DNA from: Patescibacteria group bacterium
GTDB lineage: Bacteria > Patescibacteriota > Dojkabacteria > GCA-002793355
Reading direction: 5' to 3'
Length of the DNA: 64,000 bases
Assembly: GCA_016860985.1 (NCBI GenBank)
Contig: BOKM01000001.1
Location: forward strand, 789,857-853,856
Below the pieces are notes generated by a model. The model saw only the letters and a list, made by a program, of their open reading frames with translations, had not been told where the DNA came from and made no database searches. The translations under genes were made by a program, and so were the position numbers. Shown in pieces: positions 1-21,918 of the stretch (positions within the stretch are counted from its first letter, which is position 1; the number at the start of each line of letters is the position of its first letter).

Positions 1-88
1 TATCCGCAAGACCAAAAGAAAAGCAGGTATCTAAAAGGGTGTATTCGGCGCTTCCTTGATTTCATTATCCTCAGTAATTGTATAAAAT

Positions 89-898
89 ATGACTATGTTG
101 TTTTGGATTCTACGAATTCTATTATTGTTTATATTGTTAGTCATCCTTGTTTGGGTCGCAGGTTACATTTATTCAAATGATTTTTCTGTTCAGACTAAGT
201 CTTTGAAAGATTTTAATAACCGCAAGATATTAGTCATCTTTCCACATGCTGATGATGAAGCACTTTCTGCTGGCGGGGTTTTATCAAAATTAGCAGGTAA
301 TGGTGCCAATTTACGTTGGATCATTTTAACAAAAGGTGAAAAGGGAACTCCAAATGGAGAAATAAATGAGAGTTTAAAGCAAATTAGAATTGATGAGTCA
401 CGTCATACAGCAGAAATACTACATGTTGATTCAGTAATCCAAGGTGATTTTCCTGATGGGGGTCTGAACTCAGCTGACAAAAAATTAAACCAATATATTG
501 AACAGCAGATTGATGATTTTAAGCCTGATCTTGTTTTAACATACGATTTATCAGGGTTATATGGTCATCCAGATCACATAGCTGCTTCCGAGATAACTAC
601 TCGCATTATCTCCAATAGACCCAAAACACAATTGTGGTATGTATCTTTTCCAAAAAGAATATTAGCAACTATCACTTTGCCGACACATATGGCAGAAGAT
701 GTTAACTTTATGAATCGGCGAATGAATCCAACTCACAAGATATGGGTTGGATTAAGAGGTATTTGGAATAAAATTCGAATTTCTTATGTTTATGAAAGCC
801 AAGGAGGCTCATCCTCAAAAAATATGCCAGTAAAATTTATTCCTTTTTGGTTTTATATTTCGCTAACCCCATTCGAGTACTTTTATGAGGTTAAATAA
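89..898 (+). CDS. PIG-L/LmbE family N-acetylglucosaminyl deacetylase-like protein with N-terminal TM helix
   Basis: Motifs HADDEALSAGG and GHPDH (metal-binding His/Asp of the PIG-L fold); hydrophobic N-terminus. Confidence 0.7.
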   Translation: MTMLFWILRILLLFILLVILVWVAGYIYSNDFSVQTKSLKDFNNRKILVIFPHADDEALSAGGVLSKLAGNGANLRWIILTKGEKGTPNGEINESLKQIRIDESRHTAEILHVDSVIQGDFPDGGLNSADKKLNQYIEQQIDDFKPDLVLTYDLSGLYGHPDHIAASEITTRIISNRPKTQLWYVSFPKRILATITLPTHMAEDVNFMNRRMNPTHKIWVGLRGIWNKIRISYVYESQGGSSSKNMPVKFIPFWFYISLTPFEYFYEVK

Positions 899-1172
899 TT
901 ATTTCTTCAAAGTAATGCTCGTTATTTCTTCTTTTGTTTTAGGAGTTATTTCAGCCTTCTTATACGAATCGTTAGCAGGGATAATTGGTAAAAACATATT
1001 TAACAAAGAGGCATTAGTGATCTATGGATATAAGCTACATCACAGTCTGTATGGAGTCTTATTTTTAGCTTTAGCCTATGTCAACAGAAATGTATTTTTA
1101 GCTGGCTTTGGACTTGGAATTATTACGCAGCATACACTTACAGATGGTTTCAGATTTATTCAAAAAATGTGA
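885..1172 (+). CDS. small integral membrane protein (2-3 TM), hypothetical
   Basis: 95 aa, hydrophobic helices; overlaps stop of upstream gene by 14 nt (operon-like). Confidence 0.4.
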   Translation: MRLNNYFFKVMLVISSFVLGVISAFLYESLAGIIGKNIFNKEALVIYGYKLHHSLYGVLFLALAYVNRNVFLAGFGLGIITQHTLTDGFRFIQKM

Positions 1173-1317
1173 ATTTTCATTTCCTACCGGTAGGTAATGG
1201 ATATTTTTGATTTAGCTCGATAGTACGGTATTTTATATTTTTCTTTTACCCTCTTATTCCTTATATATAAGGGAGAGGAATGATACAATCATTCCAAACT
1301 GCCCCAGCTTAACTACT

Positions 1318-2091
1318 ATGGACAGCCAATTACTACCAACAGCACAACTAGACATTCTCCAATATCTCTATAGATTCCGTTTCTTAAATAGCTCACAACT
1401 TCAACGACTACTAACTCACAGCAACATCCGTCTAACAAATTACCATCTTAAAAATCTCATCACACACAACTACATCGGTAAACACTACTCACGATCTTTA
1501 GGACTAGCCAACCTACCAGCCGTTTATTATCTATCATCTCAAAGTATCAAAGTTTTATCAGACAGTCCGAATTTTGATAAACGAGCACTGAAACGTATTT
1601 ACCGAGAGAAAATAAGATCCCAGCAGTTTATAGCTCACTGCTCATTTGTTGCCGAGTACTTCCTCTATTTACGAGGTGAATCAGAAAAATCAAAACATGC
1701 ACTCCATTTTTTCACTAAAACCGATCTTCTTGCTCACCCGTACCTAATACACCCATTGCCAGACGCCTACTTTGCCAGAGTCGGTAATAAAAAGGAAACC
1801 AAACGATACTTTGTGGAAGTGGTCGAGGACAGCTCTCCGCGTTTTGCTCTACGCAAACGAATAGAACAATATTGTGACTACATTGATGATGGCAAATTCA
1901 CAGAAGCCACTGGCCATGATTTTCCAACCCTTCTATTTATCTGCCCAGGTTACGCCAGTTTGATCTACCTTAAAAAACATATTGCCCGCATATATGAAGA
2001 AACCTCACTTGATCAAATAGAAATTTATATCGCCACCAAAGAACAAGCTTTTGCTGGTAGTTGGGAAAAGATAGAGGCAGAAGAAGACTAG
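1318..2091 (+). CDS. replication-relaxation (Replic_Relax) family protein
   Basis: N-terminal LDILQYLYRFRFLNSSQLQRLL wHTH typical of the plasmid/ICE replication-relaxation family; preceded by 14-bp perfect palindrome CCTTATATATAAGG and -10-like TGATACAAT. Confidence 0.55.
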   Translation: MDSQLLPTAQLDILQYLYRFRFLNSSQLQRLLTHSNIRLTNYHLKNLITHNYIGKHYSRSLGLANLPAVYYLSSQSIKVLSDSPNFDKRALKRIYREKIRSQQFIAHCSFVAEYFLYLRGESEKSKHALHFFTKTDLLAHPYLIHPLPDAYFARVGNKKETKRYFVEVVEDSSPRFALRKRIEQYCDYIDDGKFTEATGHDFPTLLFICPGYASLIYLKKHIARIYEETSLDQIEIYIATKEQAFAGSWEKIEAEED

Positions 2092-2589
2092 CTACGGCAT
2101 GAAGAAATAGTTATATTCATCAAATGGAAAATGCCCAGCGGGTTTGTTCAAGAGGAGATCAGCCAACTCCCACGCTGTCATATTTTCCGATATTCTATAT
2201 TCTGCATTCGTATCGATTGTGCCGTCTTTGCCGACTTTGATAGCCTTGTCGCTTGGCGTGGTGTCCTTAGTGTGTTCTAGAGCGTACCTAAAAGCTTTTT
2301 CATCTCTCACAAAGCCGTAATAGAAAAGATTTCCTATAAGAGCGTCGAGTGTAACTTCTGTACTAATTCTTAAATCTGCTGTTCCGTCTACACCTGGCTT
2401 CGATCTAATTTGCTCTGCTTCGGCAACTGGCATATGCAGGCGTTCGATAAAATAGTCTTCTACCTTTTTGGCTGATTCCCAATCTTTGCCTGGAGCCTTA
2501 AAATTTTCTTCATTGTGTTTCGTGAAGAAATAATACACAAAACCACCAACCAATATGAGAATTACTAAAGCAATAAATTTCCTGCCCAT
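2092..2589 (-). CDS. membrane-anchored hypothetical protein
   Basis: N-terminal TM helix, no recognisable catalytic motif. Confidence 0.35.
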   Translation of the reverse strand: MGRKFIALVILILVGGFVYYFFTKHNEENFKAPGKDWESAKKVEDYFIERLHMPVAEAEQIRSKPGVDGTADLRISTEVTLDALIGNLFYYGFVRDEKAFRYALEHTKDTTPSDKAIKVGKDGTIDTNAEYRISENMTAWELADLLLNKPAGHFPFDEYNYFFMP

Positions 2590-2621
2590 AAACTCATTAT
2601 AGAACAGTAGGGCAAACGTTT

Positions 2622-2981
2622 TTAGAGTTTTTTAACAACTTCACCAATATCAACTAAATTGGCTTTACCTAAATCAACATCTGTTCCTCTGACGCTATTT
2701 CCACTCATCCCAACTGTTTTAACACGTGGAGCGTGTTCTCTGATTGCTCTTAAGACTGATTGGCCATCGTGTCCATCAGAATCATATTCGTTGAGGTTTC
2801 CGTCGATTACCGCCACATCCACACTCAATTCACCAAGGCGTTTAACTAATCGTAATGCGTCCGGGAGATTTGTTGCGCATGCAACAATGGTGTGTCCAGC
2901 TTCCTCAAGAAATTCCTTGAGAAAACTCTGATAATCCTTATTATCTTCTGCTATAAATACTCTTGCTTTTTCTGGTGACAT
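2622..2981 (-). CDS. stand-alone response-regulator receiver (CheY-like REC) domain protein
   Basis: VFIAEDN acidic pair and VAVIDGNL phospho-Asp region. ORF track starts at 3002, but a strong SD (AAAGGAG) precedes the internal ATG at 2981 (MSPEKARVF...), so 2981 is the likelier start. Confidence 0.55.
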   Translation of the reverse strand: MSPEKARVFIAEDNKDYQSFLKEFLEEAGHTIVACATNLPDALRLVKRLGELSVDVAVIDGNLNEYDSDGHDGQSVLRAIREHAPRVKTVGMSGNSVRGTDVDLGKANLVDIGEVVKKL

Positions 2982-3087
2982 ACTTCTCCTTTTTCGTTCC
3001 ATTTGGAACCATTAAGGAGGTAAGTTACTCTCTCTCTCTCTCAAAGTCAAGCTTTGATTGCTAGAACAAGCTAATTCAGGAGACAAG

Positions 3088-3119
3088 AGCAGCCTCAATG
3101 GTTAATCCTTGAGGCTGCT
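3088..3119. terminator. 11-bp perfect-stem hairpin (AGCAGCCTCAA-N10-TTGAGGCTGCT) with flanking A/T runs
   Basis: Direct reading; overlaps the stop of 3102..3323(-); a (CT)6 microsatellite lies just beyond at 3031-3043. Confidence 0.4.
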
Positions 3120-3323
3120 AATTGAAAAAAAATACCTGCGGTTATAGTAATAATCGAGTTCTTTTCGTCCTTCCTCCGTTTGTCTGAACTCATAAAATAG
3201 TCGTGCCCCTTTATCGCTTAAGAGTGGGACAAACTCGGGTAAGTCGTTTAGCGGGACTTTGCGAAACTCCTGCAATCGTAAATCTACTGTGTAGCCTTTA
3301 AAAACTGGTAATCTTCTGATCAT
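3102..3323 (-). CDS. hypothetical protein (73 aa)
   Basis: ORF only; its 3' end overlaps an 11-bp-stem hairpin (3088-3119). Confidence 0.3.
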   Translation of the reverse strand: MIRRLPVFKGYTVDLRLQEFRKVPLNDLPEFVPLLSDKGARLFYEFRQTEEGRKELDYYYNRRYFFSISSLKD

Positions 3324-3382
3324 ATATTTTCCTTTCTTGGATACCCATCCGCGGGGTTGGGGCCCCGCGGTGGATACAATAT

Positions 3383-3697
3383 TTATAATTTTGCTTTGGG
3401 TACGACCTCACTAATTCTCTTCTCATCAAAATATAAATCACGCTCAATCCCTACGCCAAAGTTGCCGCGGTAGCTTTCGAGTTCATCTAGAGAGAAAGAA
3501 CCCCATTCATCGTTCCAATCCCCAAAGATGGAAACGAAGCCGAAAAACTCTCTTGATGCTGGATCGTACTCGGTGGCGTACCACGTACCCGCGCCTGTCG
3601 GGTTGAAGAACTTGGCAACCACTATGGGATCGCTGCTGTCCTCCTGTCTGCCTAGCTTGGCGAATCTGACTAAAAGTTCCTTGGTTAATAGTTTCAT
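3383..3697 (-). CDS. DUF2958 domain protein (family common on plasmids/ICEs, often near anti-restriction genes)
   Basis: MKLLTKELL...DPIVVAKFFNPTGAGTWYATEYDP matches the DUF2958 N-terminal signature. Confidence 0.6.
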   Translation of the reverse strand: MKLLTKELLVRFAKLGRQEDSSDPIVVAKFFNPTGAGTWYATEYDPASREFFGFVSIFGDWNDEWGSFSLDELESYRGNFGVGIERDLYFDEKRISEVVPKAKL

Positions 3698-3742
3698 AAT
3701 TTCTCACCTCCTTCTTTTGGCTCTTCCCGAAAATTAATAGTT

Positions 3743-3764
3743 GGGAAGTATGGCCATACTTCCC
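3743..3764. promoter_or_regulatory. 22-bp perfect palindrome GGGAAGTATGG|CCATACTTCCC between divergent genes (operator candidate)
   Basis: Direct reading; lies between the DUF2958 operon start and the 3907 gene. Confidence 0.45.
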
Positions 3765-3906
3765 ATACTTGGGTGATTTTTTAGCGGGGTGAATTTTGCA
3801 AGGGCAAACGAAGTGCAGTTTATTGGAGCGAAGCGGAAACCCTTGCGAAATGAGGGGTAAGACCCCTGAAATTGAATCTATAAGACTTATAGTGTAAAAT
3901 CCCCGC

Positions 3907-5223
3907 ATGGCTAGACCAGAAAGCATTACAGGTTTAATTCCCGGCTTAAACAAGGGTTTTGAGGAGCTTAATGACGCTCAACACGCTTTTGATACTGAGG
4001 CACAACTAGAGCCTGGTAGAATTCTCTGGTTTGATAAGACATATGGTGCAAGCCGAGATGGAAAACGTGCTCGAGCATTACTTCAAGCGGCTACCCTAGA
4101 ACCTGAAACGTTATTCCGCGGTGCCCCCCCCAGTACGTTAATTGAGACAACTTCAACTGGCGCAAGAACAGTAAATATTCCATGGAAAGATTGGGGTGGT
4201 GATGCTTATTTAAATCTCAAGGGTATCGGAGCAATAACTTTTGGACAAACAAAAGAAGCAACAGAGCACTTAAACTGGCAAATCCACAAACGACGCGCAG
4301 TAGGCTGGAATGGCGTTGCAGGTAGAGAAATTGTATCTCAAGCAGATCAAGAAGCCGCTACTTTTCAGCATTTAGTTAAACATAATCCCGAATTAGAATG
4401 GGATATTAATGCACCTATTTGGCGTCCAATAGCTATAGCGGCAGGAAAAGGACATATTGCCGCACTACAAGACCCATATTTCGATACAGGAAAATATGGA
4501 ATAGAGCAATCTGCTGTAAGTGCTCGAAGGCTACCTTATACAAAGCATAGATTGGATGAATATGTGGAGTTTCATAACCCTACTCCCGATTCTTTAGAAG
4601 GACTAAGGAAGCTTGATTCGCTATGGAATCATCAGGACACTTCACATACTTTTATTAGAGCTGCTGAAAGACTTGGTAAAGCGTACAAGATATTTAAGCA
4701 GGCTGACGTGTTTCATATGCAAGCTTTTACACTTGCTAGGTACAAAGAAGGTTCGGCTGCTTGGATGAACTTTAACAACATAGCGATTGACGGGTCTGTT
4801 GGGGATTTAGACTGTGGTCAAAAAGTAGATCCTGAATCTAGCTATGTTTGGTGGCAAATGCGTGAAGCATTTGGTAGTGCTCTTATGTATTTAATGTTCA
4901 CTCACCGAATGAAGCCAAAATTATTAAACGATAAATCTTTCCTAAATAAATTCTTCGCAAGTTGGAGAGAAGGAATAGGAAGTGACTATGTGGAGCAATT
5001 AAAATGGGAATTTGACAACAAAGGAACTTTTGAGGACGTAACCAATGGTATTGAAACATTTGCCCGTTGGTTTAGCTCTCCAGCTGACACGCGCCCCGAT
5101 GGTTCTCGCGATACACTCGGGTGGCAAAATTACTTAGGTCATAAAACAAAAGATATATGGACGGCTTCTGCTAATGAAGTCGTCAAAGCAGTAAGAAAAA
5201 ATCGATCTTCTGTAGGTATTTAG
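3907..5223 (+). CDS. hypothetical protein (438 aa, soluble), noticeably GC-richer than its neighbours
   Basis: Long ORF with no recognised motifs; contains a C8 homopolymer near 4125-4132; followed by a clean rho-independent terminator. Confidence 0.45.
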   Translation: MARPESITGLIPGLNKGFEELNDAQHAFDTEAQLEPGRILWFDKTYGASRDGKRARALLQAATLEPETLFRGAPPSTLIETTSTGARTVNIPWKDWGGDAYLNLKGIGAITFGQTKEATEHLNWQIHKRRAVGWNGVAGREIVSQADQEAATFQHLVKHNPELEWDINAPIWRPIAIAAGKGHIAALQDPYFDTGKYGIEQSAVSARRLPYTKHRLDEYVEFHNPTPDSLEGLRKLDSLWNHQDTSHTFIRAAERLGKAYKIFKQADVFHMQAFTLARYKEGSAAWMNFNNIAIDGSVGDLDCGQKVDPESSYVWWQMREAFGSALMYLMFTHRMKPKLLNDKSFLNKFFASWREGIGSDYVEQLKWEFDNKGTFEDVTNGIETFARWFSSPADTRPDGSRDTLGWQNYLGHKTKDIWTASANEVVKAVRKNRSSVGI

Positions 5224-5304
5224 TATTATCGTGTCGGTCTGACGATCCATCTTCTTGACTTTCCGTCTGGTTAGGATAATAATTCCCTCAAGTTCAACAG
5301 AGCT

Positions 5305-5328
5305 GCCCCTCCGGATAGGGGCTTTTTT
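5305..5328 (+). terminator. rho-independent terminator (GCCCCT-CCGGAT-AGGGGC + T6)
   Basis: 6-bp GC stem, 6-nt loop, TTTTTT run directly after the 3907..5223 stop. Confidence 0.7.
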
Positions 5329-5381
5329 GTAACCAGACCTGCCTAATATTTATAAATTAGTAATTTATATGGAGGTAGGTT

Positions 5382-5717
5382 ATGAATAAAAAGATTATTA
5401 TCTTCTCATCAGTCGCCATTACGGCACTAACTTTTGCTTCACCAGTCTTTGCCGCTTCGGGTGATGTCACCAAAATCGAAACGTTCATTAAGAGTGTCAT
5501 CCAAGTACTCGTAACACTTGCTGGACTAATTTCTGCCGGATTTTTTGTCTGGGGAGGCGTTGGCTACATTACTAGCTCAGGCAACCCAGAAACTCTTGAT
5601 CGCTCCAAAAAAACAATTTTGTATTCAGCTATCGGGCTCGCGGTTGTGCTTGGTGCTTTCGTGCTGACAAATATTGTTTCAGATCTGGCAACTGGAGCAT
5701 TTGGCGCGGCTCAGTAA
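5382..5717 (+). CDS. VirB2/TrbC-like T4SS pilin
   Basis: Signal peptide ending VFA-AS followed by two hydrophobic helices (111 aa), the classic VirB2/TrbC topology; GGAGGT SD; first gene of a compact T4SS operon. Confidence 0.6.
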   Translation: MNKKIIIFSSVAITALTFASPVFAASGDVTKIETFIKSVIQVLVTLAGLISAGFFVWGGVGYITSSGNPETLDRSKKTILYSAIGLAVVLGAFVLTNIVSDLATGAFGAAQ

Positions 5718-5745
5718 GTCGGCCAATATTGGAATATGAACAAAT

Positions 5746-6825
5746 ATGAAATTATTAGTATTGGTAGCAACCATACTCATAGCTCTCTTCACTCCAACGC
5801 TTGCGTATGCTTCAACTAGCGCGCCTACGGAGGTGACAGCGTTTACCAATGACGCACTTTCAATAGTTACACTTATCTCGGCCGCAGCAGCGGTCTTTTT
5901 TTTAATTCGAGGTGGCTATATCTATATTACTTCAAGTGGGAAACCTGATGCACTTGAAGAGGCAAAGAAAACCATTCGCAACTCATTACTTGGGCTTGTT
6001 ATAGTCCTAGCATCGAGCGGATTAATTTCACTTTTGTCTGGTGCGCTCGTAGGGGAAACTGGAAGCACCAATGTCACAACCCTGCCTATTACTCAGATAG
6101 AAAGTGTGGCTCCAAGCGATGGACTCACTCAAGTGCTGATCGATGCAGTCAACGGCTTTATCCAAAACATTGTTGAGAGTTCCACTAAACCAATAGTTGA
6201 TGGCATTATGACTTTTCTTTCAACCACTCCGTCGCTTCTTGAGAATGCTTCAATTGTTAAATTCTGGCTAATCATGCTCGGGATTACCGATACACTGTTT
6301 GTGCTGGTTGTGGCACTTTTAGGCCTTCAGTTTATGAGTGCTTCCACCTTTGGATTTGAAGAGATTGAATTTAAACATTTACTTCCTCGAATTGGGCTAG
6401 CCTTCTTAGGAGCAAATGTTTCGCTATTCTTGGCTGACTATGCCATCAAAGCTAGCAATGCTTTGGTTTCTGGTGTCATTTCCGCTACTGGAGGACTAAA
6501 TCACGCATGGATTAGTAATGCCGTTACTATCTCAAGTATTACTAACGGTACTGCACCATTTATTATCCTAATTTTCCTACTCATATTTTTGATTGTGGCG
6601 ATTGTGCTACTTCTGATGTATATCAGTCGCTTGATTGTGATCTCACTTGGTGCCGTGCTTTCGCCCTTTATTTTTCTCCTATCAGCAATTCCCAAAACTG
6701 CCGATTTTGCCGAAATGGCAGTTAAAGGATATTTCGTTTCAGTTTTTATGATCTTTGTGCATGTGGTCACGATTCAACTGGCTGGTACTTTTTTAACGCT
6801 TCCAGAGCAAACAAATAATTACTGA
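5746..6825 (+). CDS. VirB2-like N-terminal module fused to a VirB6/TrbL-like polytopic membrane domain
   Basis: N-terminal 100 aa repeat the pilin architecture; C-terminal about 250 aa has at least 5 TM helices. The reading frame continues in-frame past the TGA at 6823-6825 for 68 more codons, to 7030. Confidence 0.5.
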   Translation: MKLLVLVATILIALFTPTLAYASTSAPTEVTAFTNDALSIVTLISAAAAVFFLIRGGYIYITSSGKPDALEEAKKTIRNSLLGLVIVLASSGLISLLSGALVGETGSTNVTTLPITQIESVAPSDGLTQVLIDAVNGFIQNIVESSTKPIVDGIMTFLSTTPSLLENASIVKFWLIMLGITDTLFVLVVALLGLQFMSASTFGFEEIEFKHLLPRIGLAFLGANVSLFLADYAIKASNALVSGVISATGGLNHAWISNAVTISSITNGTAPFIILIFLLIFLIVAIVLLLMYISRLIVISLGAVLSPFIFLLSAIPKTADFAEMAVKGYFVSVFMIFVHVVTIQLAGTFLTLPEQTNNY

Positions 6826-7030
6826 TCTCGGTAGCAGTTGCAATTGGGCTTCTTTTAACCCTACTCAAAATCCCTTCATTCATGATGCAGCTCATCTTAT
6901 TCTCCCGTAGTGTTGGAGCAGTTCGCCACGTTGGGAGTCAAATTACCAATGTGCTTAGTACTGATTCAAGCGCCTCAGCATCATCAAAGGCTGCCAGGTC
7001 GGTTACAACGCCCAGAAAGACCGTACATCT

Positions 7031-7504
7031 ATGAGAACTACAATTATTCCAGCACAAATAACGACTGTTGAGGACAAGATCGCCGGATCACTTAACATGA
7101 CCCAAATCTTGATCCTCATGTTTCCGGTTCTTTGGACTGCGCTCATCTACATTTTGTTTGCGCCTGCCATGAAACTTGTACCCTACAAACTAGGACTCAT
7201 TGGTGTTGTGATCATGATCTGCTTGATTCTAGTTATTCGAATAAAAGACAAAATAGTAGCTGAGTGGCTTGGAGTGGTACTCAGGTATCAATTCCGTCCG
7301 AAGTACTGGCTTTATAACAAAAACGATACAACCAATCGCATTATTGATATTCCTGACATCCCAGATATTGCCGTTATTAAAAGAAAAACAACAAAGAAAG
7401 CATCTAGTGATCAAAAGACCGAAATAAATATTTCTGACCTTGTTCGTCTCGAGCAATTAATCGACTCAGGCAAGGTAGCCGTTCGTTATCAAATGAAAAA
7501 TTAA
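7031..7504 (+). CDS. VirB3/PrgI-like small T4SS membrane protein
   Basis: Two N-terminal TM helices then a hydrophilic tail; sits immediately upstream of VirB4, as VirB3 does. Confidence 0.4.
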   Translation: MRTTIIPAQITTVEDKIAGSLNMTQILILMFPVLWTALIYILFAPAMKLVPYKLGLIGVVIMICLILVIRIKDKIVAEWLGVVLRYQFRPKYWLYNKNDTTNRIIDIPDIPDIAVIKRKTTKKASSDQKTEINISDLVRLEQLIDSGKVAVRYQMKN

Positions 7505-7508
7505 AACT

Positions 7509-8126
7509 ATGAGTATTTTTAGCAAATCTAAAAAATCTAGTAGCCGTCAACAAATCCAGATTAAAGAAGTCGTGGATAATATCCTCGTTCTGCCTAATAA
7601 CGAATATCGGCAAATCCTTGAAACTTCATCAGTCAATTTTGAGCTCAAGAGTGAAGAAGAACAGGATGTGATTATCGATAGCTTTCAAAACTTCTTAAAC
7701 TCACTTCCGCGTGAAATCCAAATACTCGTTCGTGTAAGGGAAGTCGATATTGATCGCTACGTCGAAGATATTGGCAAAACTAAAGATAAAGAAACTATTC
7801 CTGCCTACAAAAAGCAGATTGAGGGCTATTGCTCATTCGTTAAAAAACTTGTTTCAGGTAACAAAATCCTTTCGAGGCGTTTCTACATTGTCATTCCTTA
7901 CAAACACACTGAGCGTCATCAGGACATGAAACTCATCAAAGAACACTTGAACCTTGAGAAGGACATTATTATTAAAGGTTTGGAGAGAATGCAGATGAAA
8001 GCCCGAAGCATAACAGGTCTTGAAATTCTCAATTTATTTTATGGCTTCTACAACCCGGAAAGTTTGAAAACTCAGGCAATTACAAAGGAAACTGTCGAAG
8101 CCTTACTAAAAAACAACTATGTTTAA
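7509..8126 (+). CDS. VirB4-family ATPase, N-terminal fragment (split gene)
   Basis: VLPNNEYRQILETSSVNFELKSEEEQDVII resembles the N-terminal region of Gram-positive VirB4/TraE homologues; 205 + 599 aa = full VirB4 length. Confidence 0.5.
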   Translation: MSIFSKSKKSSSRQQIQIKEVVDNILVLPNNEYRQILETSSVNFELKSEEEQDVIIDSFQNFLNSLPREIQILVRVREVDIDRYVEDIGKTKDKETIPAYKKQIEGYCSFVKKLVSGNKILSRRFYIVIPYKHTERHQDMKLIKEHLNLEKDIIIKGLERMQMKARSITGLEILNLFYGFYNPESLKTQAITKETVEALLKNNYV

Positions 8127-9918
8127 TTTAAAGAAAAAAATCACTAGCCTCAAACCAATTAAAGCGTGGCAAAAGAAGCGCAAGCTCAAGGCCATGACAA
8201 ATCAGGCCGTTAAAATTGCTTTTGGCACGCAAGATCAAGTGGATTTAATCTCTTACGCAGGACTCAAAGAAGAGTCTAGCTATTTGCAGATAAACGACCG
8301 ATTCGTCAGAACTATGTTTGTCTCGGGATACCCTTATGTGGCTTCAACTGGTTGGCTTAATAACCTGATTAACTTTAATCATGATATTGATATCAGCTAC
8401 CACATCGAACAAGTTGATCCTTTAACCGCCCTGCCCAAACTGATTAGAAAAATAACTGAACTAGAATCCACAAAGCGCACCATGCTCAAAGAAGGCAAGG
8501 TTATCGGGAGCGAGATTACTGATCCTCTTGAATCTGCTATGGAGCTTAAAGACAAAATCCAGCGGGGCATGGAGAAGCTGTTCCAAATCTCAATCTATAT
8601 GACGATTGGTGCGGAATCACTCATTGAGCTAAATAAAGTCACTAAACTTTTAGAAACTGTCATGCAGACGAGACTCTTCTACATCAAGCCTGCCACTTTT
8701 CAGCAGATCGAAGGCTTGCAGTCCATTCTCCCCAGAGCTGAGAATAAATTAGCTCAAAAACGTAACCTTGATAGCTCAAGCGCTGCCCTTACTTTTCCTT
8801 TCGTCTCATCTGAACTCGTCCAAGAGTCAGGTATTCTCTATGGCATCAACAAATCCAATAACTCACTGGTGATCATCGACCGCTACTCCTTAAATAATGC
8901 TAACTCGATTATTTTTGCACAATCTGGATCGGGTAAAAGTTATACCGCCAAGGTCGAAATCCTCCGCCACCTCATGCAAGGCACCAAAGTCATCATTATC
9001 GACCCTGAGCGCGAATACAAACAGTTGGCGGCCAGTGTTGGTGGAACATATATCAAACTCTCAGCCACTTCCAAAGAGAAAATTAATCCGTTTCAATTTT
9101 CCCAGCACTCGGTAACGCAAGAGAATAATTTATCTGAACACATTCAGGATTTAACCGAGCTCATTTCCCTCATGGTTGGCTCACTCACCTCAGAGGAGCG
9201 GGCATCGGTTGATCGCGCTCTGCTTCTCACCTACAAAGAGGCCAAGTTAACGCCTCGCAAAAATGCCAAAAAACAAAAAGAAGTTGAATATCCACTACTT
9301 AAGGATTTCTACAAAAACCTCAAAGCCATGAAGCATAAGGATTTATGTGACAGACTTGAGAGATTTGTAAAAGGGTCGCTATCAACCGTCTTTGATTCTC
9401 AAACAAATATTCAATTGGATAACCGCCTGATTGTCTTTGACATTAAAGACTTAAACGAATCCATTAGATCAATCATGATGATGGTGGTGGCCAACTTCGT
9501 AAATAATGAGGTTAAACAAAATCCCCAGAAGCGAATGCTCGTTATTGATGAGGGATGGATACTTCTCCAAGAGCCAGAGAGTGCGAGGTTTATCTCTGGA
9601 TTAGTTCGTCGTGCCAGAAAATATTATCTGGGTGTCACGATTACCTCCCAACAAGCCAACGACTTTCTTAACCAAGACTACGGCAAGGCCATTGCTAGTC
9701 AGTCGTCTCTCCGAATCCTGATGCGCCAAGATACGACCACCATCAAAAAAGTGGCTGATGAGTTCCATTTATCTGCATATGAACAACACTATCTGCTAAC
9801 CTGTGATCGGGGTGAGGCTTTAATTATTGCTGATCAAAACCATGTTGCAGTGAAAATTGTGGCCTCAGAGCAAGAGCATCCACTTCTGACTACTGATCCC
9901 CGGGAAGTCTATATCTAG
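8119..9918 (+). CDS. virB4: VirB4/TraE-family T4SS ATPase (C-terminal about 600 aa)
   Basis: GYPYVASTGWLNNL motif, Walker A AQSGSGKSY, Walker B VIDEGW, conserved C-terminal region. Confidence 0.8.
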   Translation: MFNLKKKITSLKPIKAWQKKRKLKAMTNQAVKIAFGTQDQVDLISYAGLKEESSYLQINDRFVRTMFVSGYPYVASTGWLNNLINFNHDIDISYHIEQVDPLTALPKLIRKITELESTKRTMLKEGKVIGSEITDPLESAMELKDKIQRGMEKLFQISIYMTIGAESLIELNKVTKLLETVMQTRLFYIKPATFQQIEGLQSILPRAENKLAQKRNLDSSSAALTFPFVSSELVQESGILYGINKSNNSLVIIDRYSLNNANSIIFAQSGSGKSYTAKVEILRHLMQGTKVIIIDPEREYKQLAASVGGTYIKLSATSKEKINPFQFSQHSVTQENNLSEHIQDLTELISLMVGSLTSEERASVDRALLLTYKEAKLTPRKNAKKQKEVEYPLLKDFYKNLKAMKHKDLCDRLERFVKGSLSTVFDSQTNIQLDNRLIVFDIKDLNESIRSIMMMVVANFVNNEVKQNPQKRMLVIDEGWILLQEPESARFISGLVRRARKYYLGVTITSQQANDFLNQDYGKAIASQSSLRILMRQDTTTIKKVADEFHLSAYEQHYLLTCDRGEALIIADQNHVAVKIVASEQEHPLLTTDPREVYI

Positions 9919-9920
9919 CT

Positions 9921-10535
9921 ATGAATCCAAAGCTAGTACTTACACTCTGGTCGTTTCGCAAAGAACTTAAATTCGTCCTCCTCGCATTCTTCACTATCCT
10001 CATGCTCCCTGTCATTGCGGTCATTCTACTGACTCAGGTGGGTATAAATATAATCTCTGACAAACTCGTAGATCAAAATGCCACAACTCAGGCCATTCAG
10101 ATCAAAGATCCAACCACTGGTGAGGTAGTAACGGAAATAAACCCCACCGTTGTCTGGCCAACTAAAGGGATAATTACTCTGGAATTTGCACAATCGAGTA
10201 TGTATCAGGTCTTTCACACTGGCATTGATCTCGCCAGCAAGCTTGATGAACCAGTGAATCCTGCTATGGACGGCACTGTTATTTACGCGGGAGAGATATT
10301 CTGGGGTTATGGCAAGCACGTCATTATTGACCACGGCAATAATGTGATGACCATCTATGCCCACCTAAACAAGATTTATGTCTTTAAAGGCCAAAAGGTG
10401 ACCACCAGCGACGTAATCGGTGGCCAAGGTCAAACTGGCTGGGCAACGGGAGTGCATCTTCACTTTCAGGTGAATGTATATGGCATACCAGTGAATCCAA
10501 GGGTGTTTTTAGATAATAAAACCGCTGCTAAGTAG
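9921..10535 (+). CDS. M23 (LytM-type) metallopeptidase with N-terminal TM; T4SS-associated cell-wall hydrolase candidate
   Basis: HTGIDLA ... IDHG ... TIYAHL ... GVHLHFQ M23 signature; start 3 nt after the VirB4 stop. Confidence 0.75.
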   Translation: MNPKLVLTLWSFRKELKFVLLAFFTILMLPVIAVILLTQVGINIISDKLVDQNATTQAIQIKDPTTGEVVTEINPTVVWPTKGIITLEFAQSSMYQVFHTGIDLASKLDEPVNPAMDGTVIYAGEIFWGYGKHVIIDHGNNVMTIYAHLNKIYVFKGQKVTTSDVIGGQGQTGWATGVHLHFQVNVYGIPVNPRVFLDNKTAAK

Positions 10536-10594
10536 AAGCATTTTATTTCGTAACGTACTATAATGATTAAGTACGAATTAGTATCAAAAGTACC

Positions 10595-10777
10595 ATGGTC
10601 ATGGAAGAACTATTAACATTAAAAGAGGCTGCAAATGTCCTCAAAGTACACCCAAACACCTTGAGGGATTGGGATAAAAAAGGGATACTTAAAGCTGTTC
10701 GGATTGGTATCAAAAAAAGCTTAAGATACCGAAAAGAAGATATAGAAAAATTTATTAGTCACAAAAACGGTAAATAA
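10595..10777 (+). CDS. small HTH DNA-binding protein (excisionase/MerR-like HTH_17)
   Basis: LTLKEAANVLKVHPNTLRDWDKKGILKAVRIG is a typical HTH_17 pattern; first gene of the RM operon. Confidence 0.55.
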   Translation: MVMEELLTLKEAANVLKVHPNTLRDWDKKGILKAVRIGIKKSLRYRKEDIEKFISHKNGK

Positions 10778-10779
10778 CT

Positions 10780-12363
10780 ATGACAAATAACAATCAAAAC
10801 ACTACTAAAGAGCAAGAGCGAGCCGAGCTTCACCGAGCCATTTGGCAAATCGCCAATGACTTACGCGGTAGTGTGGATGGTTGGGATTTCAAATCTTACG
10901 TGTTAGGAATGCTTTTTTATCGTTTCATTAGTGAAAACTTGACTAGCTATATCAATGCCGATGAACGACGATCTGGTAAAAAAGATTTTGATTATGCCAA
11001 ACTAACAGATAAAGAGGCAGAATTTGGAAGAACGGACACGGTAAAAGAAAAAGGCTTCTATATCTTGCCGAGCGAACTGTTTATTAACGTTTGCAAAAAT
11101 GCCAGAAATGACAAAAATCTTAACGAAACTCTATCAAAAGTTTTTACCAACATTGAAAACTCTGCAAAGGGATCAGTAAGTGAAGATGATCTTAAAGGTT
11201 TATTTGCCGATTTGGACGTTAATTCTAGCAAGCTTGGAAACACCGTAGAGCATCGCAATCAAAAACTAGTGAAGATTGTTGAGGCTATTGGTAATCTTCG
11301 CCTTGGTAATTACTCTGACAATACAATCGATGCTTTCGGTGATGCCTATGAGTTCTTAATGACCATGTACGCCTCTAACGCAGGTAAATCTGGAGGAGAA
11401 TTCTATACTCCTCAGGAAGTTAGTGAATTACTCGCGGAGATTACTACTGTTGGCAAGAAAGAAGTTAACAAGGTGTACGACCCTGCCTGTGGATCTGGCT
11501 CGCTCCTTCTAAAATTTGCGAAAGTTTTGGGAAGAGAAAATGTTCGTCAAGGTTTCTTTGGTCAAGAAATTAATCTCACTACCTACAATCTTTGTCGTAT
11601 CAACATGTTTCTACACGACATTAACTACAACAATTTTGACGTAGCTCTTGGCGACACACTTATTGATCCTAAACATTGGGATGATGAGCCATTCGATGCG
11701 ATTGTTTCCAATCCTCCCTATTCGATTAGATGGGAAGGTGATGCTAATCCACTTCTGATCAATGATCCTAGATTCTCACCTGCTGGAGTTTTGGCACCAA
11801 AGAGTAAGGCTGACTTGGCCTTTACAATGCATATGCTTTCGTGGCTTTCTACTAGTGGCACGGCTGCAATAGTCGAATTTCCCGGCGTTCTTTATCGAGG
11901 CGGTGCAGAACAGAAAATTAGAAAGTATTTAATTGACAACAACTATGTGGATACAGTGATTCAACTTCCACCAGATTTATTTTTTGGTACGACTATTGCC
12001 ACCTGTATTATCGTGCTAAAGAAAAGCAAAAAAGATAACAAAATTCTATTCATTGATGCATCGGCCGAGTTTGTTCGTAATGGTAATAAAAATAAATTAA
12101 GTGAAACAAATAGACTCAAAATCTTAGAAGCTTTTACATCTCGATCTGATGCAGAGTATTTCGCCAAGCTAGTTGATAGTAAAGATATCGCAATTAATGA
12201 TTACAACATTGCTGTATCAAGTTATGTAACTGCAGAGGACACTCGTGAAGAAATAAACATCACCGAGCTAAATGCAAAGATTAGCCAAATAGTGTCTAGA
12301 CAATCTGAGTTAAGAAAAGCGATCGATGAAATTGTTGAGGATATTGAAGGTGAAAACACATGA
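10780..12363 (+). CDS. hsdM: Type I restriction-modification N6-adenine DNA methyltransferase subunit HsdM
   Basis: GEFYTPQEV motif, SGS AdoMet motif, NPPY catalytic motif (SNPPYSIRW). Confidence 0.9.
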   Translation: MTNNNQNTTKEQERAELHRAIWQIANDLRGSVDGWDFKSYVLGMLFYRFISENLTSYINADERRSGKKDFDYAKLTDKEAEFGRTDTVKEKGFYILPSELFINVCKNARNDKNLNETLSKVFTNIENSAKGSVSEDDLKGLFADLDVNSSKLGNTVEHRNQKLVKIVEAIGNLRLGNYSDNTIDAFGDAYEFLMTMYASNAGKSGGEFYTPQEVSELLAEITTVGKKEVNKVYDPACGSGSLLLKFAKVLGRENVRQGFFGQEINLTTYNLCRINMFLHDINYNNFDVALGDTLIDPKHWDDEPFDAIVSNPPYSIRWEGDANPLLINDPRFSPAGVLAPKSKADLAFTMHMLSWLSTSGTAAIVEFPGVLYRGGAEQKIRKYLIDNNYVDTVIQLPPDLFFGTTIATCIIVLKKSKKDNKILFIDASAEFVRNGNKNKLSETNRLKILEAFTSRSDAEYFAKLVDSKDIAINDYNIAVSSYVTAEDTREEINITELNAKISQIVSRQSELRKAIDEIVEDIEGENT

Positions 12364-14561
12364 CGGACTTAAAGTTAGACATAAAATTAGAAAATTGTTA
12401 TGGGATTAAGAAGCTTGATCATAAGTTTGATTTTTCAAAATGTCATACCTTTGTAATTTATGCTCCAAACGGTGTGATGAAAACATCCTTTGCAAACACT
12501 TTTAAAGACCTTGCCAGTGCCAAAGTACCCTGTGATCGCATCGACGATTCTCTAACACCGATTTGTGAGGTTTTAGATTGTAGTCAAAATACACAGCCTC
12601 AACCTGAATCAATTTGTGTTATTGAACCATATAACGAGAAAGCATTTGACTCTGAGGGGAAGGTGCTTACACTTCTGGCTAACGAAGAAGTTAGAAAAGA
12701 ATATCTTGGTATCTATTCAGAGTTAGATAAGGAAAAACAGTCATTAATTAAAACTCTTAAAAAAGTTTCAAAAAGTAATAACTGTGAGGCGGAATTAGTT
12801 TCGACTTTCTCAACAAGCAAGGAAAACATTTTTGAAGTTTTACTTAAAATAGTAGATGATTCGCGAAAGTCTACAGAAAAATATGATTTCAAATATAACG
12901 TAGTTTTCGACCCGGCAGGAAAAGTTAAGGATTTTCTAAATGAAAATAAAGAACTTTTTACCCAATACTGTGATAAGTACAATGATTTAATCAGTCATTC
13001 TGACTTTTTCGCCAAAAGTGGCGAAACTGTTTTTGGTACATCGGAGGCAAAAAGTCTTAGTGACTCAGTAAAAGGCAACGAGTTCTTTTCTGCTGGACAC
13101 GGATTAAATATAAAAAAATACGGTAGCATTGGTGACAATAAACGATTCAACGAGATAGTAGACGAAGAAATACAGAAGATATTTAACGATAAAGACCTAA
13201 AAGGTATTTTTGACAAAGTTGAGAAAAAGCTTAATGCAAATCAAACCCTTTCCGACTTCAAAAAATTGATAGAGAAAAATCCGGCACTTGTAGTGAAGCT
13301 TGCAGATTACGAACAGTTTAGGAAAGATGCATGGTTCAGCTTTCTCGGTCAAATTATTAATGAGTTGGATAAATTAGTTGCTTTATACATTAGTAAAAAA
13401 ACAGAGATTGAAGATCTTATTAAAAAGGCGAATGAACAACAGTCGAAGTGGGAGGATGCCATTCAAGAATTCAGCGATCGATTCTTCAATATGCCATTTT
13501 CCCTGAGCATAGAAAATAAATCAGACGCAATTCTGAACACACAAACACCAACAATCTCCTTTAAATTTAAAGGGAAGCCCGTCGACAGAAAGAAGATGAT
13601 TGACGTTTTGAGTCAAGGTGAAAAAAGGGCGTTTTATATATTAAATGTGATTTTTGAAGTTAAGTCACGCCAACTTAGTGGTACAAAAACGCTATTTATT
13701 ATCGATGATATAGCAGATTCATTCGACTACAAGAATAAATACGCTATCGTAGAGTATTTGCATGATATTTCCAGAGATCCAAACTTTTACTCTATAGTGA
13801 TGACCCATAACTTTGATCTGTTTCGGACACTTCAATCCCGAGTGTTACAAAATAATAAATGGACTAATTCGCTCATAGCTGAAAAGGTGGCTGATGAGAT
13901 TCGTTTAGTTGATGCTGGAAGTAAAAATATTACTGATCCTTTCTCTTTGTGGAAAAGGGACGTTCACAGTAACGAAAAATACCTTATTGCTTCGATTCCT
14001 TTTGTTCGCAATTTAATCGAATATAAAGATAGTCAAAATATCAGCTATCGTCTATTAACTCACGCACTTCACCAAAAAATGGCAGACCCCGTAAATAGTA
14101 TTAAAGCAACAGACGATATTTCTATAAGTGACTTGGAGCCTATTTTTTTAAGTGTTTTGTCAATCTCGCCTTTTACATATACAGACACATCTAAAAAAAT
14201 TATTGATATTATCGACAAATTGACTACAGATATTGTCAGTGCAGCAGACTCGGATTCAATAGTACTTGAGGATAAAATAATTCTGGCAATTGGATCTAGA
14301 TTGAAAGCTGAAAAATATATGTGGTCTAAGGTAACAGATCAGTCTGAAATTTCTGGAAATCAAACAGGATTATTATTTCGAAGATTTAAAGATGAATTTG
14401 CTAGTGACCAAAGCTACAAAGACAAAATTCGAATACTTGAAAATGTCAACATTATGACTCCAGAAAACATACACCTGAACTCTTTTATGTACGAGCCGAT
14501 CTTAGATATGTCGATAGACGAGTTAAAGCATTTATATGGTGAGGTCAGTAAATTAAATTAA
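12360..14561 (+). CDS. ABC/SMC-type ATPase with degenerate Walker A and long coiled-coil insert (PrrC/RloC- or OLD/PARIS-like topology), embedded in the Type I RM operon
   Basis: N-terminus LDIKLENCYGIKKLDHKFDFSKCHTFVIYAPNGVMKTS parallels the SbcC/Rad50/OLD N-terminus (GPNGSGKST replaced by APNGVMKTS); about 300 aa coiled-coil; ABC signature-like LSQGEKRAF; Walker B LFIIDDI; H-loop-like THN; about 250-aa C-terminal domain of unknown function; start overlaps the hsdM stop (ATGA). Confidence 0.5.
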   Translation: MTDLKLDIKLENCYGIKKLDHKFDFSKCHTFVIYAPNGVMKTSFANTFKDLASAKVPCDRIDDSLTPICEVLDCSQNTQPQPESICVIEPYNEKAFDSEGKVLTLLANEEVRKEYLGIYSELDKEKQSLIKTLKKVSKSNNCEAELVSTFSTSKENIFEVLLKIVDDSRKSTEKYDFKYNVVFDPAGKVKDFLNENKELFTQYCDKYNDLISHSDFFAKSGETVFGTSEAKSLSDSVKGNEFFSAGHGLNIKKYGSIGDNKRFNEIVDEEIQKIFNDKDLKGIFDKVEKKLNANQTLSDFKKLIEKNPALVVKLADYEQFRKDAWFSFLGQIINELDKLVALYISKKTEIEDLIKKANEQQSKWEDAIQEFSDRFFNMPFSLSIENKSDAILNTQTPTISFKFKGKPVDRKKMIDVLSQGEKRAFYILNVIFEVKSRQLSGTKTLFIIDDIADSFDYKNKYAIVEYLHDISRDPNFYSIVMTHNFDLFRTLQSRVLQNNKWTNSLIAEKVADEIRLVDAGSKNITDPFSLWKRDVHSNEKYLIASIPFVRNLIEYKDSQNISYRLLTHALHQKMADPVNSIKATDDISISDLEPIFLSVLSISPFTYTDTSKKIIDIIDKLTTDIVSAADSDSIVLEDKIILAIGSRLKAEKYMWSKVTDQSEISGNQTGLLFRRFKDEFASDQSYKDKIRILENVNIMTPENIHLNSFMYEPILDMSIDELKHLYGEVSKLN

Positions 14562-14567
14562 GCAAAT

Positions 14568-18813: not shown

Positions 18814-18822
18814 GGAGAATAT

Positions 18823-20082: not shown

Positions 20083-20084
20083 AT

Positions 20085-20858: not shown

Positions 20859-20860
20859 AT

Positions 20861-21694: not shown

Positions 21695-21714
21695 GAAAAT
21701 TCTATAATCAAACT

Positions 21715-21918
21715 ATGGCACCGAATAAAATTGGCAAAAAACTAAAAGACGCACGAAAGAAGCTTGGCCTCAAGCAGTCTGATGTGGCTGAAAAAGCAGA
21801 TATCAGTGTCAATTATTATGCTCGCATTGAGCGTAATGAAGAAAATCCTACCTTAGAAACCTTGGAACGTGTATTGAAGGCACTGAAACTTAAATCCTCG
21901 GATGTACTCTCGTTTTAA
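21715..21918 (+). CDS. XRE-family (Cro/CI-type) HTH transcriptional regulator
   Basis: LKQSDVAEKADISVNYYARIERNEENPTLETLERVLKAL. Confidence 0.75.
   Translation: MAPNKIGKKLKDARKKLGLKQSDVAEKADISVNYYARIERNEENPTLETLERVLKALKLKSSDVLSF

Follow-up and report, generated by a model that had tools for sequence, protein, structure and literature searches.

A 27-kb integrated element carrying a type IV secretion operon in a Patescibacteria genome: a probable integrative and conjugative element

The type IV secretion systems (T4SSs) of Patescibacteria, bacteria of the candidate phyla radiation (CPR), were recently reported to derive from the MPF_FATA type, with arrays of VirB2 pilins, with TrsD and PrgI, and with VirB6 and VirB8 scarce (Quinonero-Coronel et al., 2025; PMC12102498). 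TrsD was the commonest T4SS component in the phylum, the type IV coupling protein (T4CP) was usually encoded far from virB4, and relaxases were few, MOBC being the most frequent class (58 of 109). The systems were described as chromosomal and in most cases lacking a relaxase, and their co-option for roles other than conjugation was considered probable; integrases and element boundaries were not discussed. According to a 2025 review, these T4SSs are required for epibiotic growth (PMC12857230). Two reasons have been given for regarding them as probably no longer conjugative, namely that relaxases are rarely found nearby and that the system of Saccharibacteria is needed for epibiotic growth (PMC12102498; PMC12857230). 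The present analysis concerns a T4SS block in a 64,000-nucleotide stretch of contig BOKM01000001.1 from a Patescibacteria group bacterium (the whole stretch is hereafter called the window). With its mapped ends and an empty site, the locus is a counter-example to the view that the T4SSs of this phylum are chromosomal and probably no longer conjugative, and it qualifies the published conclusion that conjugation was lost.

Among mobile elements, the closest described relatives in kind are the serine-integrase integrative and conjugative elements (ICEs) of Firmicutes. When they integrate, their integrase gene and the target gene exchange 3' ends, and both secondary sites and attachment (att) sites within the integrase gene are on record for streptococcal and clostridial representatives (PMC4701971). 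No description of an ICE in the phylum of the present host was found in the literature, and plasmids were rarely linked to CPR bacteria in one study. The T4SS block in the window is, with good confidence, the DNA-transfer core of a 27-kb ICE that was inserted by a serine recombinase into a gene of its CPR host. As assigned from sequence, integrase, coupling protein, candidate relaxase and T4SS together constitute the gene set of an ICE, and conjugative transfer of the element, or at least of its family, through this T4SS is the best-supported interpretation.

The ends of the element and an empty site

The T4SS block belongs to an integrated mobile element that brings its own recombinase, coupling protein and cargo. 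An empty site was found in another sample (locus L084) through a look-up of the synthetase-like protein that neighbours the element in the window. L084 carries an intact 357-aa DUF1846 gene among the same neighbours as in the window, in the order EF-P, an identical synthetase-like gene, DUF1846, a VCA0040-like gene, FKBP, NUDIX and gyrA. In BLASTN comparisons, L084 positions 1-8527 matched the right flank at 98.2% identity and positions 8522-13298 the left flank at 99.6%, the two matches overlapping by 6 bp, GAGCTC. This core is present at both junctions, that of attR occupying window positions 22709-22714, and the comparison delimits an insert of 27,257 bp, whose left end is 4,542 bp outside the window and whose right end is at position 22714. 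The insert splits DUF1846, with Pfam profile positions 2-204 right of it, in the fragment within the window, and positions 204-330 left of it, in frame with the recombinase. As integrated, the recombinase ORF therefore has 699 aa (L001 5370-7040 region), the last 142 residues of which are the C-terminal part of DUF1846. The DUF1846 gene is intact in six of the seven sequence variants of its 90% cluster, one of them in an NCBI metagenome-assembled genome (MAG) whose EF-P is identical to that of the window. From about position 22580 the right flank is host-like, on the minus strand, with the DUF1846 fragment, a class II aminoacyl-tRNA synthetase-like gene, EF-P, a histidine kinase and glycosyltransferases (Pfam).

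The left part of the element was read from L001, a Logan assembly that was found among public assemblies with the first gene of the window as query. It matches window positions 1-10898 at 100% identity and reaches 9.9 kb further left. Upstream of the window it encodes, in this order, the recombinase at the left end of the element, a 50-aa ORF and an 869-aa coupling protein; both the recombinase fusion and the coupling protein occur in identical form on the window's own 1.05-Mb source contig. The enzyme is a large serine recombinase, which matches Pfam Resolvase (35.1 bits, cutoff 23.3), Recombinase (25.4, cutoff 21.1) and, under its cutoff, Zn_ribbon_recom (17.2). The coupling protein matches TrwB_AAD_bind (40 bits, cutoff 20.5), TraG-D_C (26.4, cutoff 22) and T4SS-DNA_transf (23.4, cutoff 20.1), and its matches to the coupling-protein models of NCBIfam all lie below their cutoffs.

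A preliminary description of the window, made from the letters alone, had proposed an integrated conjugative or mobilisable element with its own defence cargo, extending upstream if not incomplete. The empty site bears this out, and since attR lies at 22709-22714, the restriction-modification (RM) island to its left is inside the element as cargo. Genes for the serine recombinase and the VirD4-type coupling protein adjoin the window on its left, as an upstream extension required, and the true span is about -4542 to 22714 (27.3 kb; negative positions lie left of the window) instead of 1318-10535. The remark that no VirD4 gene lies within the window was right except for the last 59 nt of that gene.

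The composition of the element is also foreign to the host. Its GC content is 0.389 against 0.414-0.427 in the host, and in the comparison of tetranucleotides that the preliminary description had recommended, the L1 distance between element and host was 0.202, where host windows of the same length gave 0.043 +/- 0.003. This distance was reached by none of 200 such windows, the element thus lying outside all of them. Within the element, the RM slot (GC 0.372), which also departs from the host in its tetranucleotide profile, and the slot of the PIG-L gene (GC 0.334) deviate most. A gene for a 438-aa protein had been taken for a GC-shifted orphan and is neither: its GC of 0.414 is that of the host, its tetranucleotide distance falls inside the host null, and a set of 1.84 billion proteins contains 27 cluster representatives of the protein. 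A prophage or plasmid origin of the element was considered and rejected, as no capsid, terminase or replication-partition genes were seen in Pfam and PHROG scans. In the window, a tRNA scan and an Rfam scan found no tRNA and no Rfam family, and the window's host proteins had almost no genes in common with the flanks of 80 related loci.

Transfer genes and the conserved backbone

The genes that had been listed for 1318-10535 were confirmed by an ORF map and Pfam (Table 1). Two T4SS_pilin/TrbC genes are present, in departure from the MPF_FATA CD1110/CTn2 subclass, which has surface adhesins and no VirB2-type pilin; these pilins are the departure that defines the Patescibacteria variant of the MPF_FATA T4SS. 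The VirB4 ATPase also matches Pfam P-loop_TraG and AAA_10, and the closest VirB4 proteins on plasmids belong to MPF_FATA systems of Firmicutes and Actinobacteria, at no more than 38% identity. VirB4 had been described as split, and it is indeed encoded by two ORFs. Since this form is found in 77 of the 80 related loci, it is not a lesion, and damage gives way to a conserved arrangement of TrsD plus VirB4. The M23 peptidase is found in 79 of these loci. The gene called VirB3-like has the topology and position expected of one, with a PrgI score below the cutoff, and it is placed upstream of VirB4 as in a Paenibacillus MPF_FATA plasmid. At 5255-5322, where the conserved T4SS block starts before the first pilin, a promoter-like TTGACT-17-AATAAT precedes a GC-rich hairpin with a T-run.

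The second pilin gene continues into a TrbL/VirB6-like part. Its orthologues are 416-507 aa long in 63 of 66 related loci, and Pfam TrbL_4 was detected in 14 of 26 of them (best E 1.1e-9), which supports, for the family, the pilin-VirB6 fusion proposed earlier. The fusion may be the missing VirB6 of Microgenomatia. By hhalign, the pilin-TrbL family showed no similarity to the 270-aa protein encoded upstream of PrgI in the Paenibacillus plasmid.

The candidate relaxase is the product of the Replic_Relax gene (PF13814). This family is listed as the MobC relaxase superfamily (Coluzzi et al.; PMC5357655) and has been placed in the PD-(D/E)XK fold (Steczkiewicz et al.; PMC3424549), so that the earlier statement that no relaxase lies within the window is doubtful. 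An AF2 model (pLDDT 85.5) has an N-terminal winged helix-turn-helix (HTH) and a C-terminal alpha-beta-beta-beta-alpha-beta domain, which is PD-(D/E)XK-like. Residues D149, K162, R163, Y164 and E167 are invariant, and the PHROG family 'replication initiation by nicking' matches at 4e-6. DUF2958 always goes together with Replic_Relax, as in L085 and L109-L112.

Two non-coding regions near these genes, 1176-1317 and 3715-3870, show much higher conservation than the coding DNA around them and are nearly invariant in elements whose genes are about 20% divergent. In the first, CCTACCGGTAGG and CCTCTTATTCCTTATATATAAGGGAGAGGA are unchanged in nine elements with coding DNA just 69-89% identical to that of the window. 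In the second, the symmetry of the palindrome at 3742-3765 is kept by paired changes in L027 and L024, and the hairpin at 3852-3867 shows U-A to C-G changes. The first region is a candidate oriT and/or promoter-operator and the second another candidate oriT or a regulatory region; a role as operator or as small RNA is conceivable for either, and neither has a match in Rfam.

The contexts of related elements were fetched through the recombinase, VirB4 and Replic_Relax proteins. These elements share a backbone of recombinase, 50-aa ORF, coupling protein, Replic_Relax, a small ORF, DUF2958, a variable slot, the T4SS, HTH_17 and a second slot; at the right end of the window's backbone follow HTH_3, a 74-aa ORF and the PLD nuclease. 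The backbone occurs in different host neighbourhoods of other CPR genomes (by record title, Microgenomates-group lineages and WWE3). VirB4 homologues number in the thousands, and the module 5238-10535 is present in 80 species-representative genomes. One WWE3 genome holds the whole arrangement in about 27.6 kb, with VirB4 79% and the recombinase 65% identical to those of the window, and some genomes have two copies on a single contig (for example L032/L043 and L047/L049).

Between species-level genomes (the window against L003-L012), VirB4 is 97-99% identical as protein and 81-87% as DNA, with dN/dS 0.01-0.02 at dS 1.0-1.7. Backbone genes overall have dN/dS of about 0.01-0.07 at dS ~1, namely 0.01-0.03 for the recombinase, ~0.05 for the coupling protein and 0.04-0.07 for Replic_Relax and DUF2958. 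The constraint on VirB4 is as strong as that on translation-apparatus genes. Recent horizontal gene transfer as the sole cause of the VirB4 identity was rejected, given the DNA identity of 81-87% and dS ~1; the signal is instead one of long-term purifying selection plus a spread older than first appears. Individual genes are mosaic: the pilin is 100% identical to that of L104 but 90% to that of L003, and PrgI is 76% identical to that of L003 but 93% to that of L010.

Near-identical element proteins are found in MAGs labelled as different CPR lineages; these and the multiple insertion sites are the only hints of transfer between cells. Many contigs among L003-L082 that have CPR-type gene content and single-contig genomes of ~1 Mb are titled 'uncultured Gammaproteobacteria', 'Pseudomonadales' or 'Eubacteriales', and single contigs occur in MAGs labelled Anaerolineae, Methylococcaceae, Chitinophagales and Micrarchaeota. 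These odd labels are probably due to mislabelling or to mis-binning of the mobile element.

Recombinase frame, insertion targets and cargo

When the ends of the element were joined in silico, the recombinase frame ran on across the attachment site for 44 more codons, giving a protein of 601 aa; the predicted attP junction contains GACAGTGAGCTCACCAAATGGGAC. The stop codon of this tail overlaps the start codon of the PLD nuclease gene, and a ribosome-binding site, GGAGGTG, lies within the tail. Among 10 distinct right ends, pN/pS of the 44 codons was 0.08 in the recombinase frame compared with 0.79 and 2.52 in the other frames, and of 17 variable sites, 10 fell on codon position 3 and 0 on position 2 (binomial P = 0.027). 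This coding constraint indirectly supports the existence of a translated circular form. Of the 65 loci whose flanks were long enough, 49 have the PLD nuclease gene downstream of the T4SS.

Related elements point to a tRNA gene as the usual target. In four contexts (L085, L109/L110, L111 and L115) the recombinase ORF reaches into the 3' end of a tRNA-Glu gene (UUC or CUC), and ARAGORN found a complete tRNA-Glu across the junction, so that the terminal bases come from the element. Recombinases at least 90% identical to that of the window are the same up to ...LVPFG, followed by D or E and then by divergent tails such as GIRTRDLLDENQ. These tails are antisense translations of tRNA T-arms, and tails of this kind end 84 of 120 representatives of the recombinase family, many of the others being cut at contig ends. 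All family tails diverge directly after GG(T) GA, and the junctions share TC/GA plus chance flanking identity only. A 22-mer from the right end was found in 13 JGI contigs, where it is joined to no fewer than 9 different flanks, mostly starting AC, ACCA or CC. The junction data are compatible with exchange at a TC/GA dinucleotide and with an attP that mimics the 3' end of a tRNA (GAGCTCACCA). Such a short 2-bp crossover without long direct repeats would be as in large serine recombinases, TC/GA being the exact dinucleotide that we infer. The insertion site in the window is read as a secondary site because its identity with attP is limited to GAGCTC and a protein gene is disrupted there. According to a 2015 survey, no serine-family integrase was known to have a tRNA gene as its target (PMC4383910), and no later literature that settles the matter was found; the tRNA-Glu insertions suggest that large serine recombinases can do so.

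A related recombinase and coupling-protein element, L116 (CAYOFQ010000001.1 403744-425516), lies 420 kb from the VirB4 locus of its genome. The 3' end of its recombinase gene overlaps a YibE_F gene, not a tRNA, and APH and AbiEii genes are present in the element, which may represent a mobilisable relative without a T4SS. Assemblies of related elements (L008, L011 and L088/L085) often break at the right attachment site or just past the HTH_17 gene, as would be expected if populations are heterogeneous there.

The slots between the backbone blocks hold exchangeable cargo. The segment 62-1175, with the PIG-L gene, is missing from related elements, and that of 2093-3159, with a stand-alone receiver, from most of them. 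In the slot of the 438-aa gene, relatives carry metal resistance, a diversity-generating retroelement (DGR), an ABC transporter or Shedu. Among L109-L111 (11840-14320) and the flanks of L112 and L115, some elements have a DGR with bAvd, reverse transcriptase and an Lcl_C-type target, accompanied by a large fn3 protein and an ABC transporter; others have, in the slot of the 438-aa gene, long heavy-metal/thiol-redox cassettes of HMA, P-type ATPases, DsbD and DsbA. The HTH_17 gene is kept after the M23 gene in L088 and L104, and in L104 the RM segment behind it is replaced by a set of SNF2/PLD, Eco57I-type methyltransferase and PDDEXK genes. In the window, the gene between hsdM and hsdS encodes a 733-aa SMC-like ATPase, a full-length match to the PADLOC candidate defence family PDC-S46 (782 bits). 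The cargo of relatives includes RM, a DISARM-like set, a DGR with ABC transporter, heavy-metal resistance, Shedu and glyoxalase.

Table 1. Features of the element and its surroundings, in window coordinates unless a locus is named
Feature	Position	Strand	Evidence or remark
VirD4-type coupling protein gene (869 aa), 3' end	1..59	+	remainder upstream of window (L001)
Cargo slot: PIG-L family deacetylase 89-898; 95-aa membrane protein 885-1172	89..1172	+	Pfam PIG-L 105 bits
Conserved non-coding region before relaxase candidate	1176..1317		palindrome CCTACCGGTAGG; 30-nt near-palindromic motif CCTCTTATTCCTTATATATAAGGGAGAGGA
Replic_Relax (PF13814), candidate MOBC-type relaxase	1318..2091	+	Pfam 51.4 bits (cutoff 25.3), profile 1-186 of 191
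Variable slot: 165-aa membrane-anchored protein 2092-2589; response-regulator receiver 2622-3002; 73-aa ORF 3102-3323	2092..3323	-	Response_reg 39 bits
DUF2958 protein, backbone gene	3383..3697	-	Pfam 69 bits
Structured non-coding region	3715..3870		24-nt perfect palindrome 3742-3765; 11-bp stem 3793-3851; small hairpin 3852-3867
438-aa soluble protein, variable slot	3907..5223	+	no Pfam, NCBIfam, PHROG or PADLOC match
VirB2/TrbC-type pilin	5382..5717	+	Pfam T4SS_pilin 41 bits, TrbC 35 bits
Pilin-TrbL/VirB6 fusion gene, frameshifted	5746..7034	+	ORF 5746-6825 = 359 aa; pilin domain and 4-5 further transmembrane (TM) helices
PrgI/VirB3-like membrane protein	7031..7504	+	Pfam PrgI 24 bits, below cutoff 27; 2-3 TM helices
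TrsD-like 205-aa ORF, VirB4 N-terminal domain as separate gene	7509..8126	+	NF045971 positions 3-174; TrsD NF041427
VirB4 ATPase, 599 aa, CD1110 family (MPF_FATA type)	8119..9918	+	NF045971 361.7 bits (cutoff 325), positions 181-733
M23 peptidase, membrane-anchored, cell-wall hydrolase in VirB1 role	9921..10535	+	Pfam 100 bits; one TM anchor
HTH_17/excisionase-like DNA-binding protein, backbone gene at start of defence cargo slot	10595..10777	+	HTH_17 50 bits; PHROG excisionase 4e-11
Cargo: hsdM 10780; PDC-S46 gene 12360-14561; hsdS 14568; hsdR 15754 (type I RM); DUF2130 18823; HARE-HTH/PD-(D/E)XK nuclease 20085; RmlD-like reductase 20861	10780..21694	+
Right-end module: HTH_3 regulator 21715-21918 (+); 74-aa ORF 21915-22139 (-); single-HKD PLD-family nuclease 22141-22587 (-)	21715..22587		Pfam; conserved
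Element right end: attR core and 44 codons extending recombinase frame past attachment site	22580..22714	-	junction vs empty site
Host DUF1846 gene, N-terminal 215 codons, disrupted	22715..23359	-	C-terminal 142 codons beyond left end, in frame with recombinase ORF
Backbone blocks	-4544..61; 1176..2092; 3160..3870; 5238..10785; 21701..22714
tRNA-Glu junction sites in related loci	L085 11668-11744; L109/L110 5187-5263; L111 5190-5264; L115 11665-11739

Competing readings and comparison with known systems

Under the ICE reading, the recombinase would excise the element as a circle, which would restore the enzyme's native 44-residue C-terminus and place the PLD nuclease gene behind it. Replic_Relax, as a MOBC-type enzyme with a PD-(D/E)XK fold, would then nick the DNA at 1176-1317 or 3715-3870, and the coupling protein would pass it to a monoderm-type T4SS that bears VirB2-like pilins. 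In the recipient, the recombinase would integrate the element at tRNA-Glu by exchange at the TC/GA dinucleotide. The copy in the window would have been inserted at a secondary site in DUF1846; a 1-nt deletion also costs it the last 70 residues of TrbL/VirB6.

Several observations weigh against this reading. The assignment of the relaxase is at family level only, from the Pfam family and its equivalence in the literature; the canonical (D/E)xK lysine is not obvious in Replic_Relax, and comparisons of the protein with NCBIfam, PDB sequences and PLSDB plasmids (tblastn) gave nothing useful. No VirB8-like component was identified in the element. An exact 26-mer of attP had no match in JGI metagenome contigs and IMG/VR, a search by exact match over assembled contigs that cannot show absence of excision. 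In a protein-database query with the predicted 601-aa recombinase of the circular form, no family representative spanned the tail, the members of the 90% clusters having been read in part. The host taxonomy of the related contigs consists of MAG labels, some of them clearly unreliable. Saccharibacteria depend on their homologous T4SS for epibiotic growth but not on its coupling protein (PMC12102498; PMC12857230), so that a non-conjugative role of the apparatus is plausible. Finally, the fusion gene of the window has a 1-nt deletion near 6820, a single-base gap in the alignment, which turns ...QTNNSL... into ...QTNNY*. Its last 70 codons are thereby out of frame at 6822-7031, where they overlap a 50-aa ORF (6882-7034) that represents the remnant of the C-terminal part in another frame. 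A gap of 205 nt between 6825 and 7031 exists because the deletion truncates the gene, and the operon therefore does not fit the earlier statement that no intergenic gap exceeds 30 nt.

This deletion bears most directly on the view that the family is conjugative and the present copy is an immobilised remnant, which would be passed on by vertical descent or mobilised in trans only. It is a tentative view that deserves serious consideration. The fusion protein has 359 aa as against the usual length of its orthologues, and with the last 70 residues of TrbL/VirB6 lost, the copy in the window may be unable to transfer itself. Furthermore, it sits in DUF1846, while the four verified relatives and most tails of the family indicate tRNA genes; GAGCTC is the only homology of attP to this attB; and the recombinase now ends in 142 foreign residues. 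However, every other backbone gene is full-length, with lengths as in relatives, and ICEs at secondary sites can excise, as CTn5 does (PMC4701971). The deletion is known from two assemblies in all, being identical in L001, and these may stem from one data set, so that it is either a real mutation or a shared read error. The suggestion that the element might be incomplete thus fails as far as missing genes are concerned, and survives in the sense that the copy may be defective, by its VirB6/TrbL frameshift and non-canonical target.

The main rival to conjugation is that the element is an integrative island with the T4SS as cargo for epibiosis, that is, for attachment to or exchange with a host bacterium, and with the T4CP and Replic_Relax in other roles such as replication of the circle. 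The case of Saccharibacteria, with an essential T4SS and a dispensable T4CP, speaks for it, as do the VirB2-type pilins, otherwise foreign to monoderm conjugation systems, the extreme purifying selection on VirB4 (dN/dS 0.01) and the annotation of Replic_Relax family proteins also as replication proteins. On the other hand, the T4SS stays linked to integrase, VirD4-type ATPase and MOBC-family protein across recombinase identities of 65-98% and VirB4 identities of 79-99%, and these partners are under equally strong selection. A near-identical strain has no T4SS at this locus, the host tolerates a truncated TrbL/VirB6 gene, and the turnover of cargo is typical of ICEs. An epibiosis role is possible, and the tight linkage and co-conservation with T4CP and MOBC genes fit it less well; overall, we consider it unlikely. 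Scarcely tenable is a core, vertically inherited episymbiont T4SS locus that is merely island-like, the scenario of one locus in all relatives with host-like composition that would have undone the preliminary description: Patescibacteria T4SS loci are near-universal and described as chromosomal, yet a strain with 98-99.6% identical flanks lacks the element, which refutes a core T4SS at a fixed locus, and the split host gene, the many insertion junctions, the two copies in some genomes and the foreign composition all contradict it.

Beyond the single locus, the ICE reading leads to a broader proposal, which is put forward with some reserve: the T4SS of the Microgenomates group and WWE3 could be the mating apparatus of a large and ancient family of self-transmissible ICEs with a MOBC-like relaxase and a serine integrase that targets tRNA-Glu. 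If so, conjugation between the ultrasmall CPR cells would be a major route for the exchange of defence systems, metal-resistance genes and DGRs, and the argument from a 'missing relaxase' against conjugation in the phylum would fail for this lineage.

In kind, the element is an ordinary serine-integrase ICE with a monoderm-type T4SS. As in the Firmicutes serine-integrase ICEs of MPF_FATA type (the Tn1549/Tn5252-type elements in rumA, and CTn2 and CTn5 of Clostridioides difficile), the integrase lies at one end with the attachment site inside its gene, secondary insertions fall inside protein genes, and a VirD4-type coupling protein is combined with a CD1110-family VirB4, PrgI and a cell-wall hydrolase encoded downstream. 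A Paenibacillus plasmid has a parallel order of VirD4-like protein, two small proteins, PrgI, VirB4 and cell-wall hydrolase. Unlike those ICEs, the element resides in a CPR host and usually targets the 3' end of tRNA-Glu instead of a protein gene. Its VirB4 is divided into TrsD and VirB4, and it has VirB2-type pilins, including one that forms a fusion with TrbL/VirB6. The hydrolase is an M23 enzyme and not NlpC/P60 or a transglycosylase, and the relaxase candidate is of MOBC type. MOBC relaxases reportedly include TraX of pAD1 and MobC of CloDF13. Replic_Relax resembles such relaxases and PF13814 in its full-length match, in its HTH followed by a restriction-endonuclease-like domain and in the location of its gene beside the T4CP and conserved palindromes; it differs in having no detectable similarity to PLSDB plasmid proteins (tblastn) and catalytic residues recognised by conservation only.

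Insertion at a tRNA 3' end, with the last bases supplied by the element and the tRNA left intact, is also known from tRNA-targeting islands of the Islander type, and an integrase ORF spanning attP from phage Mx8 and SSV (PMC4383910; PMC6070905). In contrast to these, whose enzymes are tyrosine integrases (Islander), the enzyme here is a large serine recombinase. Compared with the systems of Quinonero-Coronel et al. (2025; PMC12102498) and of Southlakia epibionticum (Wang et al., 2023, as cited there), the locus has the same VirB2-like pilin array, PrgI, TrsD beside VirB4, an MPF_FATA-related VirB4, a peptidase immediately downstream and an elusive VirB8. The pilin-TrbL fusion would supply the VirB6 that was found 'scarce' in Microgenomatia (PMC12102498). 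Unlike the systems of that survey, the T4SS described here is flanked by attachment sites that could be mapped, shares this interval with genes for a recombinase, a T4CP and a MOBC-family protein, and is missing from a sister strain. What is new is the host and the pilin-bearing T4SS variant that the element carries, and possibly the tRNA target of a serine integrase.

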